A program made the translations under genes and the position numbers. Source: Omnitrophica bacterium GWA2_41_15 (GTDB lineage Bacteria > Omnitrophota > Gorgyraeia > Ghiorseimicrobiales > Ghiorseimicrobiaceae). Taken from it: a DNA stretch of 64,000 bases. Below the pieces are notes generated by a model that worked only from the letters and a program-made list of their open reading frames with translations, ran no database searches and was not told the DNA's origin. Positions 2,641 through 46,025 of this stretch are shown here, one piece after another (position 1 is the first letter of the stretch; each line of letters starts with the position of its first letter). The stretch covers positions 2,128 to 66,127 of the forward strand of contig CAKKQO010000023.1 in NCBI GenBank assembly GCA_919902105.1, read 5' to 3'.

Positions 2641-5148
<2,508 letters not shown>

Positions 5149-5188
5149 TTCTATAAGGTTTTCTCTATTAAATAAAGGTTACATTTAC

Positions 5189-5360
5189 ATAATGAAAATT
5201 TTATGCGCCGCACGGAAATTTTTTGCCGACTGCTGCGATTTACAACTCGCAAATTTGCCGAAATTCCCTTACGGTCAGTTTCGGCATTTACTCATTGTAA
5301 TCTCTGGCAGTCTTTTGCCAAAAAATTTCTAATTGTGCTTGCTCATAAAATTTTCATTAT
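5189..5360. repeat. About 172 nt whole-length imperfect hairpin element (element E)
   Basis: Perfect 17-bp terminal inverted repeat, ATAATGAAAATTTTATG (5189-5205) with CATAAAATTTTCATTAT (5344-5360). Inner arms are also complementary (GAAATTTTTTGCCGACTGC / GCAGTCTTTTGCCAAAAAATTTC). Central hairpin TGCCGAAA..TTTCGGCA. Confidence 0.8.
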
Positions 5361-5388
5361 AATAAATTATCGCACCCTTAAACTTTGC

Positions 5389-5416
5389 TTGACTTTCTTG
5401 GGTAATGTGGTATAGT
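5389..5416 (+). promoter_or_regulatory. Candidate sigma70-type promoter for the OmpA-like gene
   Basis: TTGACT, 16-nt spacer, TGgTATAGT (extended -10), about 60 nt upstream of the AGGAGG-ATG at 5479. Confidence 0.45.
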
Positions 5417-5478
5417 TTTAGATAATTATAATTACCCGCCTAAAATATTCTAATAATATTTTTAATCAGGAGGTAGAG

Positions 5479-9473: not shown

Positions 9474-10534
9474 TTCCGATTATCATTTTAAGCGTTCTCA
9501 TTATCGTGCATGAATTTGGGCACTTTATTGTTGCCCGGCGCGTCGGCGTTAAAGTAGAGAAGTTTTCTTTGGGATTCGGCCCAAAATTATTCAGCATAAA
9601 AAGAGGCGATACTTTATACCAGCTCTGCGCTATTCCTTTAGGCGGATATATTAAGATGGCAGGCGATGAGTATGGCGAATACAAAGGCGCAAAAGATGAA
9701 TATCTGGCGCAAAAGCCTGCCAATAAAGCCAAGATTATTTTCGCCGGTGCCGGGCTAAATTACTTATTAGGCTTTGTCTTTTTTTCTTTTGCCTTACTCT
9801 TGGGTATCCCTGATTCTACTACAAGGGTGGGAGAGGTTGTATCGGGATATCCTGCTTTTGAGGCGGGAATATTGCCTAAAGACAAAATAATCGCCGTAGA
9901 TGGCAAGAAAGTAGAGTTTTGGATAGAAATGGTGGGGCTTATCCATGGGAAAAAAGGCGCAAAGGTCAATATAGCTTTATCAAGGGCGGATAAACTTATA
10001 GAATTAGAAATGCCTACCAAGTTAGAGGCCATTGAGACTACAGGAGGCAGGCATGAAATATCGCTTATCGGAATAAAACAAGGGCGTTTAAAATATGGGC
10101 TAAAAGATGCATTTGTTGTAGGCATAAAAGATTATTTAAAAACCACATTATTTTATTATAAGACGCTAGGATTAATGTTTAGCGGGAAAATATCTTTTAA
10201 ACGCTCTGTTGCCGGGCCTATCGGGATTTACTATATTACAACTGGGGCGGCTACGGCGGGTTTAGGCCCGTTGTTGTATGTATTGGCCATACTTAGTTTA
10301 AGTTTAAGCGTGATTAATTTGCTGCCCTTTCCGGTATTAGACGGAGGGCATCTTGCCTTTATTGCCTTAGAAAAAATCCGGGGTAAAGCATTGAACAGGA
10401 ATACTGAAGAGTTGATTACTCGGGTAGGGATGAGTCTGTTGATAACGCTTGCGCTTTTTACTATTTATAATGACATGGTGAATTTTTCTATTCTTGATAA
10501 CTTTCTAAACTGGATTAAATCTTTTAAGCGTTAA
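9458..10534 (+). CDS. rseP: RIP site-2 metalloprotease (M50)
   Basis: HEFGH zinc motif in TM1, an internal PDZ-like segment, and C-terminal NLLPFPVLDGGH. Confidence 0.9.
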   Translation: MFNFLVPIIILSVLIIVHEFGHFIVARRVGVKVEKFSLGFGPKLFSIKRGDTLYQLCAIPLGGYIKMAGDEYGEYKGAKDEYLAQKPANKAKIIFAGAGLNYLLGFVFFSFALLLGIPDSTTRVGEVVSGYPAFEAGILPKDKIIAVDGKKVEFWIEMVGLIHGKKGAKVNIALSRADKLIELEMPTKLEAIETTGGRHEISLIGIKQGRLKYGLKDAFVVGIKDYLKTTLFYYKTLGLMFSGKISFKRSVAGPIGIYYITTGAATAGLGPLLYVLAILSLSLSVINLLPFPVLDGGHLAFIALEKIRGKALNRNTEELITRVGMSLLITLALFTIYNDMVNFSILDNFLNWIKSFKR

Positions 10535-13476: not shown

Positions 13477-13537
13477 ACCCCGCCTTATAAGATACCGTAA
13501 AATTTTCTATCAATAATTTTACGGTATTCGGCGGGGT
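13477..13537. repeat. 61-nt compound hairpin between rimP and nusA
   Basis: Outer stem ACCCCGCC/GGCGGGGT. Inner perfect 13-bp stem ATACCGTAAAATT (13492-13504) / AATTTTACGGTAT (13515-13527). Confidence 0.8.
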
Positions 13538-13602
13538 CAATTCGCGCAAATAATTTACCTCAGTTTCACTTCTGTAAATTATGCGCTCATTGAGGGGGAA
13601 TA

Positions 13603-14796
13603 ATGAACCAAGAAATATTAGCAGTTTTGGAGCATATAGAACGCGAAAGAGGGATTAAGAAAGACATTTTAATCTCTGCAGTTGAGCTGGCACTTGTGTC
13701 TGCGGCAAAGAAAGTAATTGATGTCGGGCCGGAGCAAGAAGTAAAGGTGCAGCTAGATAAGACTAACGGCCAAATAAGGGTTTTTGTTGATAATAAGGAA
13801 GTAAATCCTCCGGAATTCGGCCGCATTGCTGCCCAGACTGCCAAACAGATTATTATTCAAAAAATACGCGAGGCAGAAAAGGAAGTGATATTTACTGATT
13901 TTCAGGGTAAAGTAGGAGAGATTGTCAGCGGTTCAGTATATCGCTTTGAGAAGAAAAATATCATAGTGGATCTTTTAGGTAAGGCGGAAGGTTTTTTACC
14001 TTATAGCGAGCAATGCCCGGTGGAGAATTTTAAACAGGGCGACCGTATTAAGGCCTTTTGTTTAGACGTAAAAAAAGAGCCTAGAGGCCCGCAGATTATT
14101 CTTTCACGTGCGCATCCGAATATGGTAAGGAAACTTTTTGAAATAGAAATTCCTGAAATATATGAAGGAATTGTCGAGATAAAGTCTATTGCGCGAGAAC
14201 CGGGTGAGCGTACTAAAATTGCCGTCTGGTCAAAGGACGAAAGGGTAGATTGCGTCGGCGCCTGCGTAGGAATGCGCGGGGCGCGGGTGAAAAATATCGT
14301 CGGTGAACTGCATAATGAAAAAATAGATATTGTTCGCTACAGCGATGAGCCGCGGGATTATATCTCTGGAGCCTTAAGCCCAGCTAAAATTTCCGAGATG
14401 AAGATAGATAAAGTAAATAAGGCTGCCGAGATAATCGTGGATGATGACCAATTATCTTTAGCCATTGGAAAACGCGGGCAAAACGTGCGTTTAGCATCGC
14501 GGCTTACCGGATATACTATCAATATACGCACTAAAACGATGCTTAAAGAGGCGGCTGCGGCTGGCGAAGCCAAGCAAGCGCAAGAAGAAGAAGGGAAAGA
14601 GGAAGTTAAGGCTGGCCTATCGGATCTTTCTGGTGTAGGTGCCAAGACCGCAGAAAATTTAAAAGATGCGGGTTTTAAGGATATTGGAGCAATTGCTCGC
14701 GCTTCTTTGGAAGATTTAGTGAAGGTAAAAGGTATAGGAGCCAAGACTGCCGCAAAACTTATTAAACAGGCAAAGAAAATTACTGGAGAAAAATAA
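13603..14796 (+). CDS. nusA: Transcription termination/antitermination factor NusA
   Basis: N-terminal domain, S1 domain, two KH domains (LAIGKRGQNVRLAS) and a C-terminal HhH-like region. Confidence 0.95.
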   Translation: MNQEILAVLEHIERERGIKKDILISAVELALVSAAKKVIDVGPEQEVKVQLDKTNGQIRVFVDNKEVNPPEFGRIAAQTAKQIIIQKIREAEKEVIFTDFQGKVGEIVSGSVYRFEKKNIIVDLLGKAEGFLPYSEQCPVENFKQGDRIKAFCLDVKKEPRGPQIILSRAHPNMVRKLFEIEIPEIYEGIVEIKSIAREPGERTKIAVWSKDERVDCVGACVGMRGARVKNIVGELHNEKIDIVRYSDEPRDYISGALSPAKISEMKIDKVNKAAEIIVDDDQLSLAIGKRGQNVRLASRLTGYTINIRTKTMLKEAAAAGEAKQAQEEEGKEEVKAGLSDLSGVGAKTAENLKDAGFKDIGAIARASLEDLVKVKGIGAKTAAKLIKQAKKITGEK

Positions 14797-22288: not shown

Positions 22289-22301
22289 AGTTTTACTAGA
22301 A

Positions 22302-22506
22302 ATATATTATGTCGTTTTCACTTAGATGCAATTTTTTAACGCAAAGGTCTTTCACAATTTCGGTGGCTGCGGAACTCGTTCTTCGGCACCTTCGTGCCAA
22401 GAATGAACTCAAACATCCTCGCCACCCCGATATAGACCATCGGGGTTCCCGCAATTCCTCAAGCTGCTTTGCTAAAATTGCAATGCGTTCAAGCGACACA
22501 ATATAT
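22302..22506 (+). repeat. About 205 nt whole-length hairpin element, family copy A
   Basis: Terminal arms ATATATTATGTCG / CGACACAATATAT. Shared core CTGCGGAACTCGTTCTTCGGCACCTTCGTGCCAAGAATGAACTCAAACAT. Internal hairpin CCCCGAT..ATCGGGG. Confidence 0.9.
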
Positions 22507-22532
22507 TTCTTCTAATAAATTAATTAAAAAAT

Positions 22533-28971: not shown

Positions 28972-29180
28972 GATAGCTGCTGTATCATTTTCGCTCAGGT
29001 GCAATTTTTATACGCCAAGTTCTCGGCATTTTAAGCGCCTGCGTAACTCGTTCTTCGGCACTTTCGTGCCAGGAATGAACTCAAACATACTCGGCGTCCC
29101 GCTCTCTGAGCGGGATGCCTTAAAATGCCTGTGCGTGCTTGGCTAAAATTGCAATTCGCTCAAATGACACAGCAGCTATC
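28972..29180 (+). repeat. 209 nt whole-length hairpin element, family copy B
   Basis: Perfect terminal arms GATAGCTGCTGT / ACAGCAGCTATC. Sub-terminal GGCATTTTAAG / CTTAAAATGCC. Shared core CTGCGTAACTCGTTCTTCGGCACTTTCGTGCCAGGAATGAACTCAAACAT. Hairpin CCCGCTC-TCTG-AGCGGG. Confidence 0.9.
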
Positions 29181-29188
29181 TAAACAAA

Positions 29189-29662
29189 ATGATGTACAAG
29201 AATCAATCTCTTAAAAAATATCTCGATGATTTGGCGGGAAAGCTGCCCGCACCCGGAGGAGGTAGTGCCGCCGCCCTTAGCGGCGCTTTGGGTTGCGCGC
29301 TTTTGTCAATGGTATCTAACTTTACCGTTGGCAAAGAAAAATACAGGAAATACGAAAAAGAAATAAAAGGTATTTTATTAAAGTGCGAGAGTTATAGGAA
29401 AAGGTTTTTGGAGTTAGTGGATTTAGATGTTAAAACATATTCAGCTTATGCTAACGCTAAAGACAAAAAATCTAAAAGTATGGCGAAAAAAGAATCGCAG
29501 AGAGTAGCTAAAGAAATTAACTCTTTAAGTTATAAAGCAATACAATTATGTTTTCCTTTGGCGGAAAAAGGCAATATATATTTGATAAATGATGTCTTAG
29601 CCGGCGCGGAACTTTTGAGCGCCGCCTTTAATGCGGCGTTGATTAACATAGAAGCCGAATAA
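29189..29662 (+). CDS. fchA: Cyclodeaminase/cyclohydrolase-family protein (methenyl-THF cyclohydrolase FchA-like)
   Basis: LPAPGGGSAAALSGALGCALLSMV signature. Sits between fhs and folD. At 157 aa it is shorter than typical family members. Confidence 0.75.
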   Translation: MMYKNQSLKKYLDDLAGKLPAPGGGSAAALSGALGCALLSMVSNFTVGKEKYRKYEKEIKGILLKCESYRKRFLELVDLDVKTYSAYANAKDKKSKSMAKKESQRVAKEINSLSYKAIQLCFPLAEKGNIYLINDVLAGAELLSAAFNAALINIEAE

Positions 29663-29684
29663 GTCTATGGTGATAATAATTTTG

Positions 29685-29857
29685 TCCCGCCTCGCCCCTA
29701 GAAATTGCTTCGCAATTTCAGGGACTAAGTCCTCGCAATTCTTCGAATTGCAGAGGGTAAGATATGTCAAAATTCTATCATATAATTTTGACACACTCGG
29801 CGGGATCAATTCCGACATACAAGTTATGTCGCTCCGCGAGCTCCATAACTTGTGTCG
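29685..29857 (+). other. Multi-hairpin structured spacer between fchA and folD
   Basis: A 7-bp closing stem TCCCGCC (29685-29691) / GGCGGGA (29799-29805) encloses three hairpins at 29696-29723, 29732-29755 and 29766-29792. A further hairpin lies at 29813-29857 (CGACATACAAGTTATG..CATAACTTGTGTCG). Confidence 0.65.
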
Positions 29858-29874
29858 TCATTGAGAGGGTAACC

Positions 29875-30720
29875 ATGAGTGCTAAATTATTAGAAGGAAA
29901 ACCGATTGCCGAAAAAATCAAGGAAGAGATAAGAAAAGAAATTAAGACATTGGGGAGGAAGCCTGTCTTAGCCACCATTCAAGTAGGTGAGAATCCTCAA
30001 AGCACAATCTATTTGAAATCTCAAAAGAAACGGGCTCAAGAACTGGACATAGAGCTTCAAGAGCATATTCTTTTAGACTCAATAGCTGAATCGGAACTTA
30101 TAAATTATATCAGAAAATTAAATCAGGACAAAAATGTAACTGGAATACTTTTGCAACTGCCTTTACCTAGCCAGATAAATTCCAAAAATATTCCTATTCA
30201 TATCGACCCCCTAAAAGATGTAGAAGGTATGCATCCAGAAAACGTAGGCCAAGCCATTTTTGGTAAGATGAGGATTGGTTCTTGCACTGCTCTTGCGGTA
30301 ATGGAATTGATTAATGCTACAGGTGTAGACTTATATGGAAAAGAAGCAGTTATAGTGGGCCACAGCGAAATTGTGGGTAAGCCGGTTAGTCTTCTCCTCT
30401 TAGATAAACTTGCTACCACTACCACCTGCCATATTGCCACGGGCCAAAGAGGTTATCTGCCTACCCATGTCAAAAGGGCAGAGATTTTAGTAGTAGCCGT
30501 AGGAAAGCCGGGAATCATCCACGGTGAATGGGTTAAAGAGGGTGCAATTGTCATAGATGTAGGCATAAACCGCGTCAACGACAAAATCGTCGGCGATGTG
30601 GAATTTGAGAAGGCGTATGAGCGGGCAAGCTACATTACGCCTGTCCCCGGAGGAGTCGGCCCGGTAACCACCATTATGCTGATGCGTAATTTGGTTGAAT
30701 CTGCGAAGTTGCAACGATAA
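29875..30720 (+). CDS. folD: Bifunctional methylene-THF dehydrogenase / methenyl-THF cyclohydrolase
   Basis: LLEGKPIAEKI start, GILLQLPLP, VVGHSEIVGKP, PVPGGVGPVT. Start set at ATG 29875. Confidence 0.95.
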   Translation: MSAKLLEGKPIAEKIKEEIRKEIKTLGRKPVLATIQVGENPQSTIYLKSQKKRAQELDIELQEHILLDSIAESELINYIRKLNQDKNVTGILLQLPLPSQINSKNIPIHIDPLKDVEGMHPENVGQAIFGKMRIGSCTALAVMELINATGVDLYGKEAVIVGHSEIVGKPVSLLLLDKLATTTTCHIATGQRGYLPTHVKRAEILVVAVGKPGIIHGEWVKEGAIVIDVGINRVNDKIVGDVEFEKAYERASYITPVPGGVGPVTTIMLMRNLVESAKLQR

Positions 30721-30725
30721 AGTTT

Positions 30726-31103
30726 ATGCTAAAGAGTATTTTCAAAACAGGCATCCTATTAAGCGTAGGCCTTCTTCTTATTACGGGTTGCGCAAAGACT
30801 AAAAACATTGATGATTTGTTACTCCATTTTGAAAGCCAGGGGCTATCCATAGAAGATCCGCCCGCCATAAGTGCCGAAGAAAAAAGGGTTGTGGAGGGCG
30901 CTAAGAAAATGTTTGCCGCGGCCGGGATTAAAGGCGGCAAAAATGGCCCGGTTGAGCGGAAAAAGAAAATTATAGAAGGCATAAAGGTTGGCATAAGCAG
31001 GTACGCAAATAATATTCTGGCCGAAAAGGCATGCCAGAATTTAACCGCATTTGAAGAACGGCGCAAAAAACGCGCTATCGAAAAATCTTCACCATATTTT
31101 TAA
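30726..31103 (+). CDS. Lipoprotein of unknown function; an in-frame TAA is followed by 48 more open codons
   Basis: Signal plus lipobox LLITGC. After the TAA at 31101-31103 the same frame remains open to TAG 31248-31250. Confidence 0.55.
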   Translation: MLKSIFKTGILLSVGLLLITGCAKTKNIDDLLLHFESQGLSIEDPPAISAEEKRVVEGAKKMFAAAGIKGGKNGPVERKKKIIEGIKVGISRYANNILAEKACQNLTAFEERRKKRAIEKSSPYF

Positions 31104-31281
31104 AAGGGTTATTTTTTAAACGCTACGTTTCTGTTAGAGGTTGAATATTATAAAGTAAAAATATTGCCGGGGGGCCTAGGCGCGGATAAGAGTAGCATAG
31201 ATGAAACCGCCTTATCAAAAATTAAGCAGGCCTTTGAGAGTTTTAAGTAGCTCTAAGCGGAATTATTTAGTTGGATTTATA

Positions 31282-31310
31282 TTGATTAGCGCGGCGGTAT
31301 TTGTTATATT
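31282..31310 (+). promoter_or_regulatory. Candidate sigma70-type promoter upstream of the small island
   Basis: TTGATT, 17-nt spacer, TGtTATATT (extended -10), 43 nt before ATG 31354. Confidence 0.45.
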
Positions 31311-31353
31311 TAAAAAGTGGTAGAGTGACGGAAATAATGAGGAAAAATTTAAT

Positions 31354-31698
31354 ATGGTTAAGAAATTAAATTTTTTGACGGCCTTGGTCACTTTCATCGC
31401 AGCGGTTATAGGATTAATCATAGGGATTCAAAATAGTACTAAAATTGTATCTCTGACAGCGAATGTTAATTCAAATAATATTCGTGTTAACGCAGATTTA
31501 AATAATATAAGCAATAAAATCATATCTATCAATAAAGATATCACGACTATTCGTGGTGATGTTAAGAATGCCGCGGGTATGAAAATAACTGCTATAGGTG
31601 GTGGTCAAGGCGATGTTACCGGTATGAGTGTAACAGCGATTGGTGATGGCAAGAGTAATATTACAGGCTTAGAAGTTGATACTATAATTGGGGAATAG
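31354..31698 (+). CDS. Small membrane-anchored repeat protein, unknown function
   Basis: One N-terminal TM helix, an N-rich middle, and C-terminal 15-aa tandem repeats GMKITAIGGGQGDVT / GMSVTAIGDGKSNIT / GLEVDTIIGE. Confidence 0.5.
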   Translation: MVKKLNFLTALVTFIAAVIGLIIGIQNSTKIVSLTANVNSNNIRVNADLNNISNKIISINKDITTIRGDVKNAAGMKITAIGGGQGDVTGMSVTAIGDGKSNITGLEVDTIIGE

Positions 31699-31701
31699 AA
31701 A

Positions 31702-32004
31702 ATGTTATCACGAAATAAAATTATAGAAATTTTAAAAAAAGAATTTCCGCGCTTAAAAGCTGAATTTAGCGTAAAAAAGATAGGTATTTTTGGCTCCTAT
31801 GCGACGGGTGCGGCGGGGAAAGCCAGCGATGTGGATATTTTTATAGATTTTACAAAACCCATAGGCCTTAAGTTTATGGATTTAGCCGAGCATTTAGAAA
31901 AAATATTGGGGAAAAAGGTAGATATCTTGACTCCTGCCGGCATAAAGGGCATAAGAATAAAACAAATCTCTCAAAGCATTAAGAAAAGTTTAATCTATGT
32001 CTAA
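31702..32004 (+). CDS. mntA: MNT-type nucleotidyltransferase antitoxin
   Basis: GIFGSYATG...SDVDIFIDF (GS-x-G / DxD minimal nucleotidyltransferase motif). 100 aa. Overlaps the next gene by 8 nt. Confidence 0.85.
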   Translation: MLSRNKIIEILKKEFPRLKAEFSVKKIGIFGSYATGAAGKASDVDIFIDFTKPIGLKFMDLAEHLEKILGKKVDILTPAGIKGIRIKQISQSIKKSLIYV

Positions 32005-32341
32005 AAGAGCGGACAAGGATTTACTTAGCGATATCAAAGAATCTATCCTGCGGATAAATAGATATAGCGATAAGGTAACTTATGCGGAATTTATGCGGGA
32101 TACCAAAATCCAGGATGCGGTAGTGCGTAACATTGAAATTATCGGCGAGGCGGTAAAGAATTTATCTGAAGCAGAAAGAAGAAAGTATCCAAAAGTCCCA
32201 TGGAAAGAGTTAGCCAAAATGAGAGATAGGCTTATTCACCATTATTTCGGGGTTAATTACGAAATTGTTTGGAGTATAATCAGAGAAGAATTACCGAATA
32301 TTGCGGCAGGGCTTAAGATGAGTAGCGGGGGATTAAAATGA
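31997..32341 (+). CDS. hepT: HEPN/DUF86 RNase toxin
   Basis: R-x4-H motif (RDRLIHHYF). 114 aa. Classic MNT-HEPN pair order. Confidence 0.85.
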   Translation: MSKRADKDLLSDIKESILRINRYSDKVTYAEFMRDTKIQDAVVRNIEIIGEAVKNLSEAERRKYPKVPWKELAKMRDRLIHHYFGVNYEIVWSIIREELPNIAAGLKMSSGGLK

Positions 32342-41747: not shown

Positions 41748-41789
41748 GGACATAAGTTATGGAACGAAGTGAACATAACTTATTAGTCC
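41748..41789. repeat. CATAAGTTATG-type hairpin after rho
   Basis: GGACATAAGTTATG - 12-nt loop - CATAACTTATTAGTCC. Same motif type as 29813-29857. Confidence 0.8.
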
Positions 41790-45779: not shown

Positions 45780-45789
45780 TACTATAAAG

Positions 45790-45997
45790 CAGGTTATTAT
45801 TCATTTTGAACGATTTGCAATTTTCGTCAGGAGTCGTAGAGATTTTAAGGTTCCCCGCCAACGGCGGGGCGCCGAGGACTGTCTGAATTCATTCCTGGCA
45901 CGGAACGTGCCGAAGAATGAGTTCCGCAGGTGCCTTAAAATATCGAGAAGCTGACGTTAAAAAATTGCATCAGAGTGAAAAATGACATAATAACATG
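45790..45997 (-). repeat. 208 nt whole-length hairpin element, family copy C (inverted relative to A and B)
   Basis: The reverse complement aligns with copies A and B: core CTGCGGAACTCATTCTTCGGCACGTTCCGTGCCAGGAATGAATTCAGACA, hairpin CCCCGCC-GTT-GGCGGGG, arms CAGGTTATTATTCATTTT.. / ..GAAAAATGACATAATAACATG. Confidence 0.9.
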
Positions 45998-46025
45998 CTG
46001 TATGCTATGATGATTAATTAGTTTT

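Follow-up and report, generated by a model that had tools for sequence, protein, structure and literature searches.

The element reported here fills the spacer between fchA and folD in a 64,000-nt stretch of DNA from Omnitrophica bacterium GWA2_41_15 (assembly GCA_919902105.1, contig CAKKQO010000023.1, positions 2,128 to 66,127 of the forward strand). This whole stretch is called the window, and coordinates are counted from its first letter. The closest described systems are dispersed extragenic palindromes, transcribed miniature repeats, IS200/IS605-derived elements, mitochondrial hairpin elements and folate-related riboswitches. Comparison of the locus with these systems and with its relatives showed the folD spacer to be an insertion of recent date whose presence varies between strains, and not a conserved folate-gene regulator. 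It most probably represents a lineage-specific insertion of a dispersed, non-coding Omnitrophota repeat, with a second repeat nested in it, which is likely DNA-spread, co-transcribed and non-sensing.

Repetitive extragenic palindromes (REP) and the related BIME and REPIN sequences (PMC3116915, PMC3337134, PMC3733652) resemble the element in being dispersed outside genes, often between co-transcribed ones, in forming modular hairpin mosaics whose structure is kept while the sequence drifts, and in their strain-variable occupancy. A REP is a palindrome of 20–40 bp, one end of which bears the tetranucleotide GTAG or CGTC (PMC3733652). The element has no such tag, its ends being YCCCGCC... and ...TCATTDA, and it consists of two different hairpin domains in direct order instead of an inverted REP doublet. 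Its unit is also much larger (∼115 nt), with invariant internal loops and long variable flank duplications; its 3′ end is locked to a downstream Shine-Dalgarno (SD) sequence, ATG or tRNA start, and no REP-associated tyrosine transposase (RAYT) was found. Transcribed repeats of the MITE type (miniature transposable elements with inverted repeats), namely Correia, ERIC/RU-1, RUP and BOX, are likewise 100–170-nt non-coding intergenic hairpin repeats; they are co-transcribed, some are modular (BOX), and they can alter mRNA processing or stability (PMC10969869, PMC3184786, PMC2229807, PMC3049150). The element differs from them in lacking terminal inverted repeats and a short fixed target duplication (TA or similar), and the divergence among its copies is much greater and includes compensatory changes. 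In its behaviour it is closest to REP/BIME/REPIN and transcribed MITE-like repeats, yet it lacks what defines each of them.

The left-end and right-end hairpins of IS200/IS605 are recognised as single-stranded DNA, and insertion makes no target duplication. The likeness of IS200/IS605-derived elements to the present one is a resemblance only: in both, the ends hold a pair of similar imperfect hairpins pointing the same way and there are no inverted repeats, and the THAAT 5′ of the foot of the second hairpin domain (D2), which covaries with the terminal ATTDA, is reminiscent of guide/cleavage-site pairing. In contrast to these elements, no conserved 4–5-nt left target is present, and flank duplications occur in a subset of copies. 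A tblastn search of 1.9 Mb of loci with an approximate IS200 TnpA query gave no Y1-transposase-like match, which is a weak test. The IS200/IS605 model was set aside on the missing left target and, in that limited search, the missing TnpA match.

The double-hairpin/RHE elements of sponge mitochondrial DNA (PMC2800124) are also small mobile hairpins of intergenic regions that show nesting and compensatory change, but they are organellar, unrelated in sequence, and have no reported locking to ribosome-binding sites. The tetrahydrofolate (THF) riboswitches THF-I and THF-II and the ZTP riboswitch share with the folD spacer a structured RNA upstream of a folate or one-carbon (C1) gene; the element differs from them in that it matches none of the covariance models, shows no link with folate genes across its copies and is not conserved at the orthologous site. 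Full-text literature searches yielded no description of repeats or RNA motifs in Omnitrophota.

Occupancy of the insertion sites and flank duplications

The fchA-folD junction was inspected in relatives. In a metagenome contig whose FolD is 98% identical (L201), the junction reads fchA-TGA-TATCC-ATG-folD, with 5 nt only between the genes. At ∼30 further Omnitrophota folD loci, a spacer of this kind is lacking, and fchA runs up to the folD start or overlaps it. The junction therefore showed no conservation at the fchA-folD spacers of relatives, neither in the 98%-identical strain nor in the ∼30 other Omnitrophota. The fchA of L201 (PF04961) has 156 aa and is as short as the form in the window (156–157 aa). 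Because this short fchA is found in L201, where the element is absent, the short form predates the insertion, and truncation of fchA by the insertion was rejected.

Two other sites gave corresponding results. The rimP-nusA site is filled in the window and empty in a relative with 86% NusA identity (L210), where the 10-nt spacer reads TAA-AGGGGGAACA-ATG. At the carbon monoxide dehydrogenase (CODH) site the situation is reversed: L201 is filled and the window empty, and there is no left duplication at the insertion. Since occupancy differs between close relatives at housekeeping genes, no gene depends on the element.

The features of the folD locus were as follows.

29189–29662, + strand: fchA (FTCD_C-type cyclodeaminase/cyclohydrolase), the upstream gene; open reading frame (ORF) with stop TAA at 29660–29662
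29663–29874: fchA-folD spacer, 212 nt from the fchA stop to the folD ATG at 29875
29663–29684, + strand: left flank GTCT-ATG-GTGATAATAATTTTG, in which the region around the folD start is present as a decayed second copy (old ATG, 29667–29669), from a three-way alignment with the empty site of L201
29685–29805, + strand: domain D1 of the host element, from the fold, a match of 45.9 bits to covariance model R1, homology to the nusA copy and family covariation
29685–29691 with 29799–29805: closing helix P1 of 7 bp, TCCCGCC paired with GGCGGGA
29692–29693 and 29797–29798: TC loops of D1
29695–29757, + strand: nested two-hairpin module (H1, linker ACTAAGT, H2), inserted in the 5′ junction of D1
29696–29723, 29732–29755 and 29766–29792: hairpins H1, H2 and H3
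29758–29762: D1 bulge TAAGA
29766–29774 with 29784–29792: D1 helix P2, with loop CTATCATAT at 29775–29783
29806–29864, + strand: domain D2, from the fold and from covariation of P3 and P4a
29806–29810 with 29860–29864: D2 helix P3, TCAAT paired with ATTGA
29811–29812 and 29858–29859: TCxTC loops of D2
29813–29857: D2 helix P4, with 4 bp, a 2-nt bulge AT, 10 bp and an apical stem
29813–29828 and 29844–29857: arms of hairpin H4
29863–29877, + strand: functional SD GAGAGGG, spacer TAACC and folD ATG (29875), directly abutting the element 3′ end and aligning with the empty site from the SD on

The left flank at folD matches the empty site through the stop, the spacer, the ATG and ∼15 nt more, and is then followed by the element. 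The right flank restarts at the SD (GAGAGGG-TAACC-ATGAGTGCTAAATTATTAG), giving a duplication of ∼35 nt whose left copy has decayed. The start of nusA is likewise duplicated as a left flank, AATGAACC. Metagenome contigs were scanned with the exact pattern AATTTT-N7-TCGSCGGRRTHAATTC, and family-wide counts, here and below, draw on the matches listed in that scan. Anchored flank duplications of 13–30 nt were present in 9 of 104 copies, compared with 1.5% of mismatched flank pairs, and they correspond to ∼8 independent loci, for example L131, L173, L088, L081, L098, L030 and L199. Where visible, flank duplications have a variable length of 8 to ∼35 nt, and some of them span the first nucleotides of the gene; most copies show none.

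The fold of the spacer

In the preliminary description, a 7-bp helix was said to enclose three hairpins, with a fourth hairpin outside it. The stems were all present at the coordinates given there, the 212-nt length of the spacer was confirmed, and RNAfold gave an identical fold for the + strand. Hairpin H4 is itself closed by TCAAT/ATTGA. The minimum free energy of the + strand spacer was –78.4 kcal/mol, compared with –48.7 ± 3.8 kcal/mol for shuffled sequences (z = –7.8; 0 of 200 shuffles as good). The reverse strand was more stable still, at –91.4 kcal/mol (z = –9.9).

The Rfam search proposed at that stage (THF-I/II, ZTP and others) matched no family at either the gathering or a permissive threshold. 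The whole window had no match in Rfam 15 at the gathering score, the interval 29500–30000 had none even at E ≤ 10, and the sole match of the nusA copy was a chance snoRNA (E = 1.1). The idea of a cis-regulatory RNA for folate or C1 metabolism thus found no support: there was no Rfam match, relatives lack the junction, and the core element precedes dozens of unrelated genes. The other reading considered at first, a composite of repeat units, was borne out, with P1, H3 and H4 belonging to one dispersed family and H1-H2 forming an independent module. A mosaic of near-identical modules had also been envisaged. Conservation in relatives was indeed absent and the modules were scattered, but the copies were diverged, with compensatory changes, and not near-identical. 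Within the window no near-identical copies of H1, H2 or H3 were found, those elsewhere being diverged homologs.

Two structural readings were discarded by inspection. A K-turn formed by the tandem G-A of the reverse strand lacks the 3-nt bulge geometry. An alternative pairing of the J12 junction (CGTAAG) with the P4 5′ arm (CTTACG) occurs in some subfamilies only and does not covary.

A dispersed two-domain repeat

The element is ∼115 nt long and is made of two hairpin domains of common design, each a 22–25-bp helix broken by an internal loop. In both domains the order of parts is stem, TCxTC loop, short stem, 5′ bulge and long stem. The D1 consensus starts with the 7-bp P1 (YCCCGCC/GGCGGGR), followed by a symmetric TCxTC internal loop, one R:Y pair and a 5-nt 5′ bulge, TAAGM. 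Its distal part is P2 of ∼12 bp, with an invariant AAAATT/AATTTT top plus a covarying base, and a 9-nt loop CTCTTCGAT. In D2, P3 (THAAT/ATTDA) is followed by a TCxTC loop, the 4-bp P4a, a 2-nt 5′ bulge and P4b of 9–10 bp, often ACTTACG/CGTAAGT, with apical extensions that vary. Unpaired nucleotides are invariant in the TAAG bulge as well as in the TCxTC and CTCTTCGAT loops. The left boundary is sharp at P1, with an information content of ∼0 in the 40 nt upstream, and the right boundary is sharp at TCATTDA.

R1 was built on the P1/P2 core. In the window, with filters off, it recovered only the folD and nusA copies; in 1.27 Mb of folD loci it found only five copies, these two included. The exact pattern recovered at least 120 metagenome loci, so that the element is a dispersed palindrome in the sense applied to REP (at least 120 metagenome loci, 2 copies in the 64-kb window and 5 in 1.27 Mb). 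The three further R1 copies lie in named Omnitrophota genomes (L030, L034 and L042), before a hemerythrin-like gene, rplS and glgA. Named proteins adjoining copies belong to Candidatus Omnitrophota. The window itself falls in this group by its FolD homologs, and its NusA is 100% identical to a protein of an Omnitrophota metagenome-assembled genome at NCBI. The exact core pattern had 0 matches in 2.9 million viral contigs, and blastn of the spacer against phage and plasmid collections gave none, and on these two grounds an origin from phages or plasmids was rejected. The 55 viral matches to the 14-mer GGGACTAAGTCCTC showed no module architecture and were taken as chance.

The second copy of the window, and a related leader without D1, were located as follows.

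13478–13593, + strand: simple-type copy in the rimP-nusA spacer, from blastn, alignment and an R1 score of 87.4 bits
41744–41851, + strand: D1-less leader before rpmE in the rho-rpmE spacer, with a P4-type hairpin, a GC hairpin and then TCATTAAGGAG-N5-ATG

The nusA copy has P1 (CCCCGCC/GGCGGGG), P2 (hairpin 3), a TCAATTC linker, a P4 of different sequence and TCATTGA, without H1 or H2; it runs into TCATTGAGGGGG-ATG, the SD being followed by the nusA ATG at 13603. The likeness noted earlier between H4 and the hairpin after rho was upheld, as 41748–41789 reads GGACATAAGTTATG..CATAACTTATTAGTCC and the rpmE leader ends in TCATTAAGGAG-ATG. In Omnitrophota contig L084, rpmE is preceded by a full element.

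Copies were also seen in pairs, close together or in tandem, in L089, L133, L090, L175 and L195; those of L089 stand head to tail, and L133 has two within 2.6 kb.

A nested independent module

Simple D1 was found in 90 unique copies, with 33–39 nt from the start of P1 to the 3′ arm of P2, and ∼18 copies carry extra hairpins. The H1-H2 module (CCCYnGAAATT..AATTTCnGGG-ACTAAGT-CCTCG..CAGAGGG) is also seen in L164, before pfkA, and in L191, again at J12. In L116 the P2 loop holds it, and in L148 it is free-standing, with no host element around it. Compensatory changes are present in its stems at every occurrence, and it is missing from the ∼90 simple-type copies. H1-H2 is thus a separate module, independent of the host element. 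The apparent four-way junction at folD arises because this module nests in the 5′ junction of D1, and not from a ligand-binding design. Two more small insert modules behave alike, ATAAGGCCCTTCC..GGAAGGCCTATCC..GGAT and ATCCCCTTTCGGGGA....

Covariation with few wobble pairs

Among 101 distinct D1 sequences, 93.3% of cells were paired, compared with 81.9% in shuffles (0 of 500 reaching the observed value), and paired cells reached at most 53.6% when the partners were slid. Changes on both sides were seen at 10 of 20 pairs and amounted to 253 cells, compared with 70.5 ± 6.4 in shuffles (0 of 500 reaching). The variable pair of P3 was complementary in 106 of 113 copies (T-A 56, A-T 37, C-G 13), and the P4a pairs covary as well.

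The stems were ∼98% Watson-Crick; wobble pairs were rare, and many of the switches were transversion pairs. P1 had 9 G:T and 3 A:C, and the P2 core 12 and 13. In a count of single mismatches in ∼5000 pairs, G:T numbered 18 and A:C 16. A call of the functional strand from wobble pairs was therefore abandoned, as G:T and A:C counts were equal and the test uninformative. Because the pairs are Watson-Crick only, with G:T equal to A:C, the covariation backs a DNA palindrome equally well as a structured RNA. Stems of this kind mark a palindrome at the level of DNA, or arms that were made recently, and are atypical of a long-selected RNA helix. For 86 of 102 copies the computed stability was higher in the complementary strand, chiefly because TCxTC turns into tandem G-A there.

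Placement relative to genes

In 108 complete copies, the downstream gene was co-oriented in 76 and opposed in 15. A start codon follows 9–15 nt past the element in 51 copies, AGGAGG starting 0–3 nt after TCATTDA. Another 16 copies have the start codon at –1 to +1 nt and lack an SD (hisH, argB, pyrG, purF, fabF, folE, nusB and others), and public gene calls agree on the starts of nine of these SD-less genes. The gaps to tRNA 5′ ends are 0–2 nt: in L082 (1636–1828) the element abuts position +1 of tRNA-Pro, and in L188 tRNA-Arg starts 2 nt from it. In L098 (4602–4823) the element follows the 3′ end of tRNA-Gln, with a flank duplication of ∼24 nt. The 5′ placement is loose, the upstream stop codon lying 0–149 nt before P1 (median 15). 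The downstream genes, assigned by Pfam, are unrelated housekeeping genes, including L19, L31, L27, L32, S13, L2, CspA, ACP and GroES as well as RibH, HisH, ArgB, PyrG, PurF, FabF, FolE and NusB. Approximately 15% of copies are antisense to neighbouring genes or lie at their 3′ ends.

Copies without a gene start downstream have no SD after TCATTDA. The SD therefore belongs to the target and not to the element, and its assignment to the element was dropped. The orientation bias could not be separated from a replication-strand bias, because 58 of the 60 crude ORFs of the window are on the + strand, an extreme gene-strand bias.

In three metagenome copies (distance –13) the conserved TAA in the bulge of D1 apparently serves as the stop codon of the upstream ORF, which the element would thus supply.

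Weighing of the explanations

Taken together, the element family would spread, or have spread recently, as DNA, without terminal inverted repeats and leaving long variable target duplications. The folD insert is most likely co-transcribed within a predicted fhs-fchA-folD mRNA, since no promoter or terminator pattern lies inside: a sigma-70-like promoter scan of 29685–29864 found none, and the same interval holds no intrinsic terminator and no T-run. As an internal promoter, the –10-like NANAAT, which spans the last part of the P2 loop and the adjoining stem, was rejected for want of a –35 partner; a start there would also leave P1 and P2 out of the RNA. At the RNA level the insert would be at most a generic structured leader, with stable hairpins directly 5′ of a free ribosome-binding site, which might provide insulation, stabilisation or a processing site. 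The duplicated ribosome-binding site would be left free directly 3′ of a stable helix, and the insert would sense neither THF nor any C1 metabolite.

Several observations weigh against an element that simply spreads as DNA. The two copies of the window are only 68% identical (blastn) and yet each is perfectly paired; with such divergence within one genome, simple recent transposition does not explain the copies. Compensatory changes distinguish the copies at seemingly orthologous sites (before rpmA, before rplS and before a gene of 87 aa), which suggests selection on structure. The 3′ end is set with a precision that a purely selfish element would not need. No terminal inverted repeats were found at the ends, which are not inverted copies of each other, the inverted repeats being internal hairpins; no conserved 5′ target was present in the 40 nt left of P1; and neither a transposase nor a RAYT or reverse transcriptase came to light, the TnpA search being a weak test. 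In favour of some function, or else of a highly specific mechanism, are the base-precise position of the 3′ end and the unpaired nucleotides, which do not vary. Against an essential role as RNA are the stems with Watson-Crick pairs only, the copies in antisense and the variation between strains.

The alternative that survives best, although it is held only tentatively, is a host-selected cis-acting RNA leader, namely an RNase III-type processing site, a 5′ stabiliser or a site for a global RNA-binding protein, in which case the folD copy would be newly recruited. RNase III-type processing sites are exemplified by the intergenic sites of phage T7. Such a leader would fit the 3′ end sharply set to SD, ATG or tRNA start with a loose 5′ end, the 76 co-oriented copies versus 15 opposed, and the invariant unpaired nucleotides (TCxTC, TAAG and CTCTTCGAT). 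It would also fit the compensatory changes between copies before the same gene family, the mostly highly expressed housekeeping genes downstream, and the 22–25-bp helix with an internal loop in each domain. However, G:U is nearly absent and G:T only as frequent as A:C, which is uncommon in an RNA structure under selection, and in 86 of 102 copies the reverse strand came out as the more stable one in computation. The ∼15% of copies that are antisense or at gene 3′ ends and the variable presence among close strains at housekeeping genes also speak against it, and the orientation bias could reflect a replication-strand preference (58 of 60 ORFs on one strand). This alternative overlaps in part with the DNA-spread insertion preferred here, as exaptation is possible.

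It appears rather doubtful that the family is a new type of mobile or recruited element for which expressed units are targets at their 5′ ends (just before an SD, at a start codon without SD or at tRNA +1), which enters by a nick-primed or SINE-like (short interspersed element) reverse-transcriptase template-switch route, and which is kept as a universal RNA leader of Omnitrophota housekeeping genes, where it would be a module for processing or for the translation start. Entry with long variable duplications and without inverted repeats would point to a nick-primed or reverse-transcriptase template-switch mechanism. If the placement reflects mechanism, it would mean a new DNA- or RNA-mediated insertion route in bacteria, or a lineage-wide punctuation device of operon mRNAs.

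A function in DNA form, double- or single-stranded, is considered improbable; the element would then be, for instance, a cruciform or hairpin bound by a protein of the nucleoid, of recombination or of replication, and its transcription would not matter. The Watson-Crick-only palindromy with G:T equal to A:C, the TCxTC that becomes a tandem G-A on the other strand, computed as more stable, and a strand orientation that fits the one-sided gene orientation and a possible replication bias are in line with such a site. But the exact abutment to translation starts would be left unaccounted for, presence varies between strains, and no candidate protein is known.

Slightly more improbable is an origin as retro-copies of an abundant small structured RNA, in which a reverse transcriptase would reach the 5′ end of a cellular RNA and switch to the 3′ end of the element RNA, the chimeric cDNA then recombining into the 5′ region of the gene. 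Under this model, the position right at RNA 5′ ends would be accounted for, and so would the sense orientation, the absent inverted repeats and the variable flank duplications. Its evidence is the 3′ end abutting tRNA +1 (L082), SD-less ATGs and SDs, the duplications of 8 to ∼35 nt that include the gene's first nucleotides, and the lack of both terminal inverted repeats and a conserved target. However, neither a master gene nor a reverse transcriptase was identified, the copies are highly diverse yet well paired singly, unlike dead retro-pseudogenes, some are antisense or at gene 3′ ends, and the CODH-site insertion has no left duplication.

A ligand-sensing riboswitch (for THF, methenyl-THF, ZTP or formate) controlling folD is close to refuted: the insert does lie directly upstream of folD in the fhs-fchA-folD C1 cluster, forms a very stable multi-stem junction and touches the SD with its P3 3′ arm, but it matched no THF-I, THF-II, ZTP or other Rfam family at E ≤ 10, the fchA-folD junction lacks it in every relative examined, including the strain with 98% FolD identity, the same architecture, composite included, precedes nusA, pfkA and many non-folate genes, and the junction was born of two nested independent repeats.

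With the DNA-spread insertion as the preferred explanation, a false riboswitch candidate is removed. The consensus and the covariance model can be used to mask a common repeat in Omnitrophota metagenome-assembled genomes, where such repeats break assemblies and mislead screens for non-coding RNA. The family joins three unusual traits, namely Watson-Crick-only structural conservation, nesting of independent modules and base-precise placement at ribosome-binding sites, starts and tRNA 5′ ends.

Other inserts in the window and its relatives

The rimP-nusA junction carries different inserts by lineage and appears to be a hot spot. In L212 (NusA 82%), an unrelated long inverted repeat flanked by TTGAA lies there (1247–1378). 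L213 (NusA 75%) keeps only a P1-like helix (9908–10000), and in L213–215 ATGAACCCCGC-40 nt-GCGGGG stands directly before the GTG start. Elsewhere, a ∼70-nt hairpin insert was seen 13 nt inside the 5′ end of tRNA-Arg in L188 (1129–1230), with a 15–16-nt duplication, AATGCGCCCATAGCTC.

A second family of intergenic repeats, long hairpins of ∼200 nt, was observed in the window at 22289–22532, 28972–29188, 45780–46025 (reverse) and 5149–5478; these repeats had no Rfam match. The type with the core TTCTTCGGCAC-TTCGTGCCAAGAATGAACTCAAACAT occupies the fhs-fchA spacer of the window. The other type (GCACGGAAATTTTTTGCCGAC...GCCAAAAAATTTCTAATTGTGC) lies at 5149–5478, and in L201 it occupies the fhs-fchA (1363–1566) and folD-metF (2895–3195) spacers.

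The interval between folD and the methylenetetrahydrofolate reductase (MTHFR) gene (30726–32341) measures ∼1.6 kb in the window and is missing from the 98% relative L201 (2895–3195). Its ORFs, named by eye, presumably encode an MNT-like nucleotidyltransferase (31702–32004) and a HepT/DUF86-like protein (31997–32341), which we take to be a toxin-antitoxin pair.

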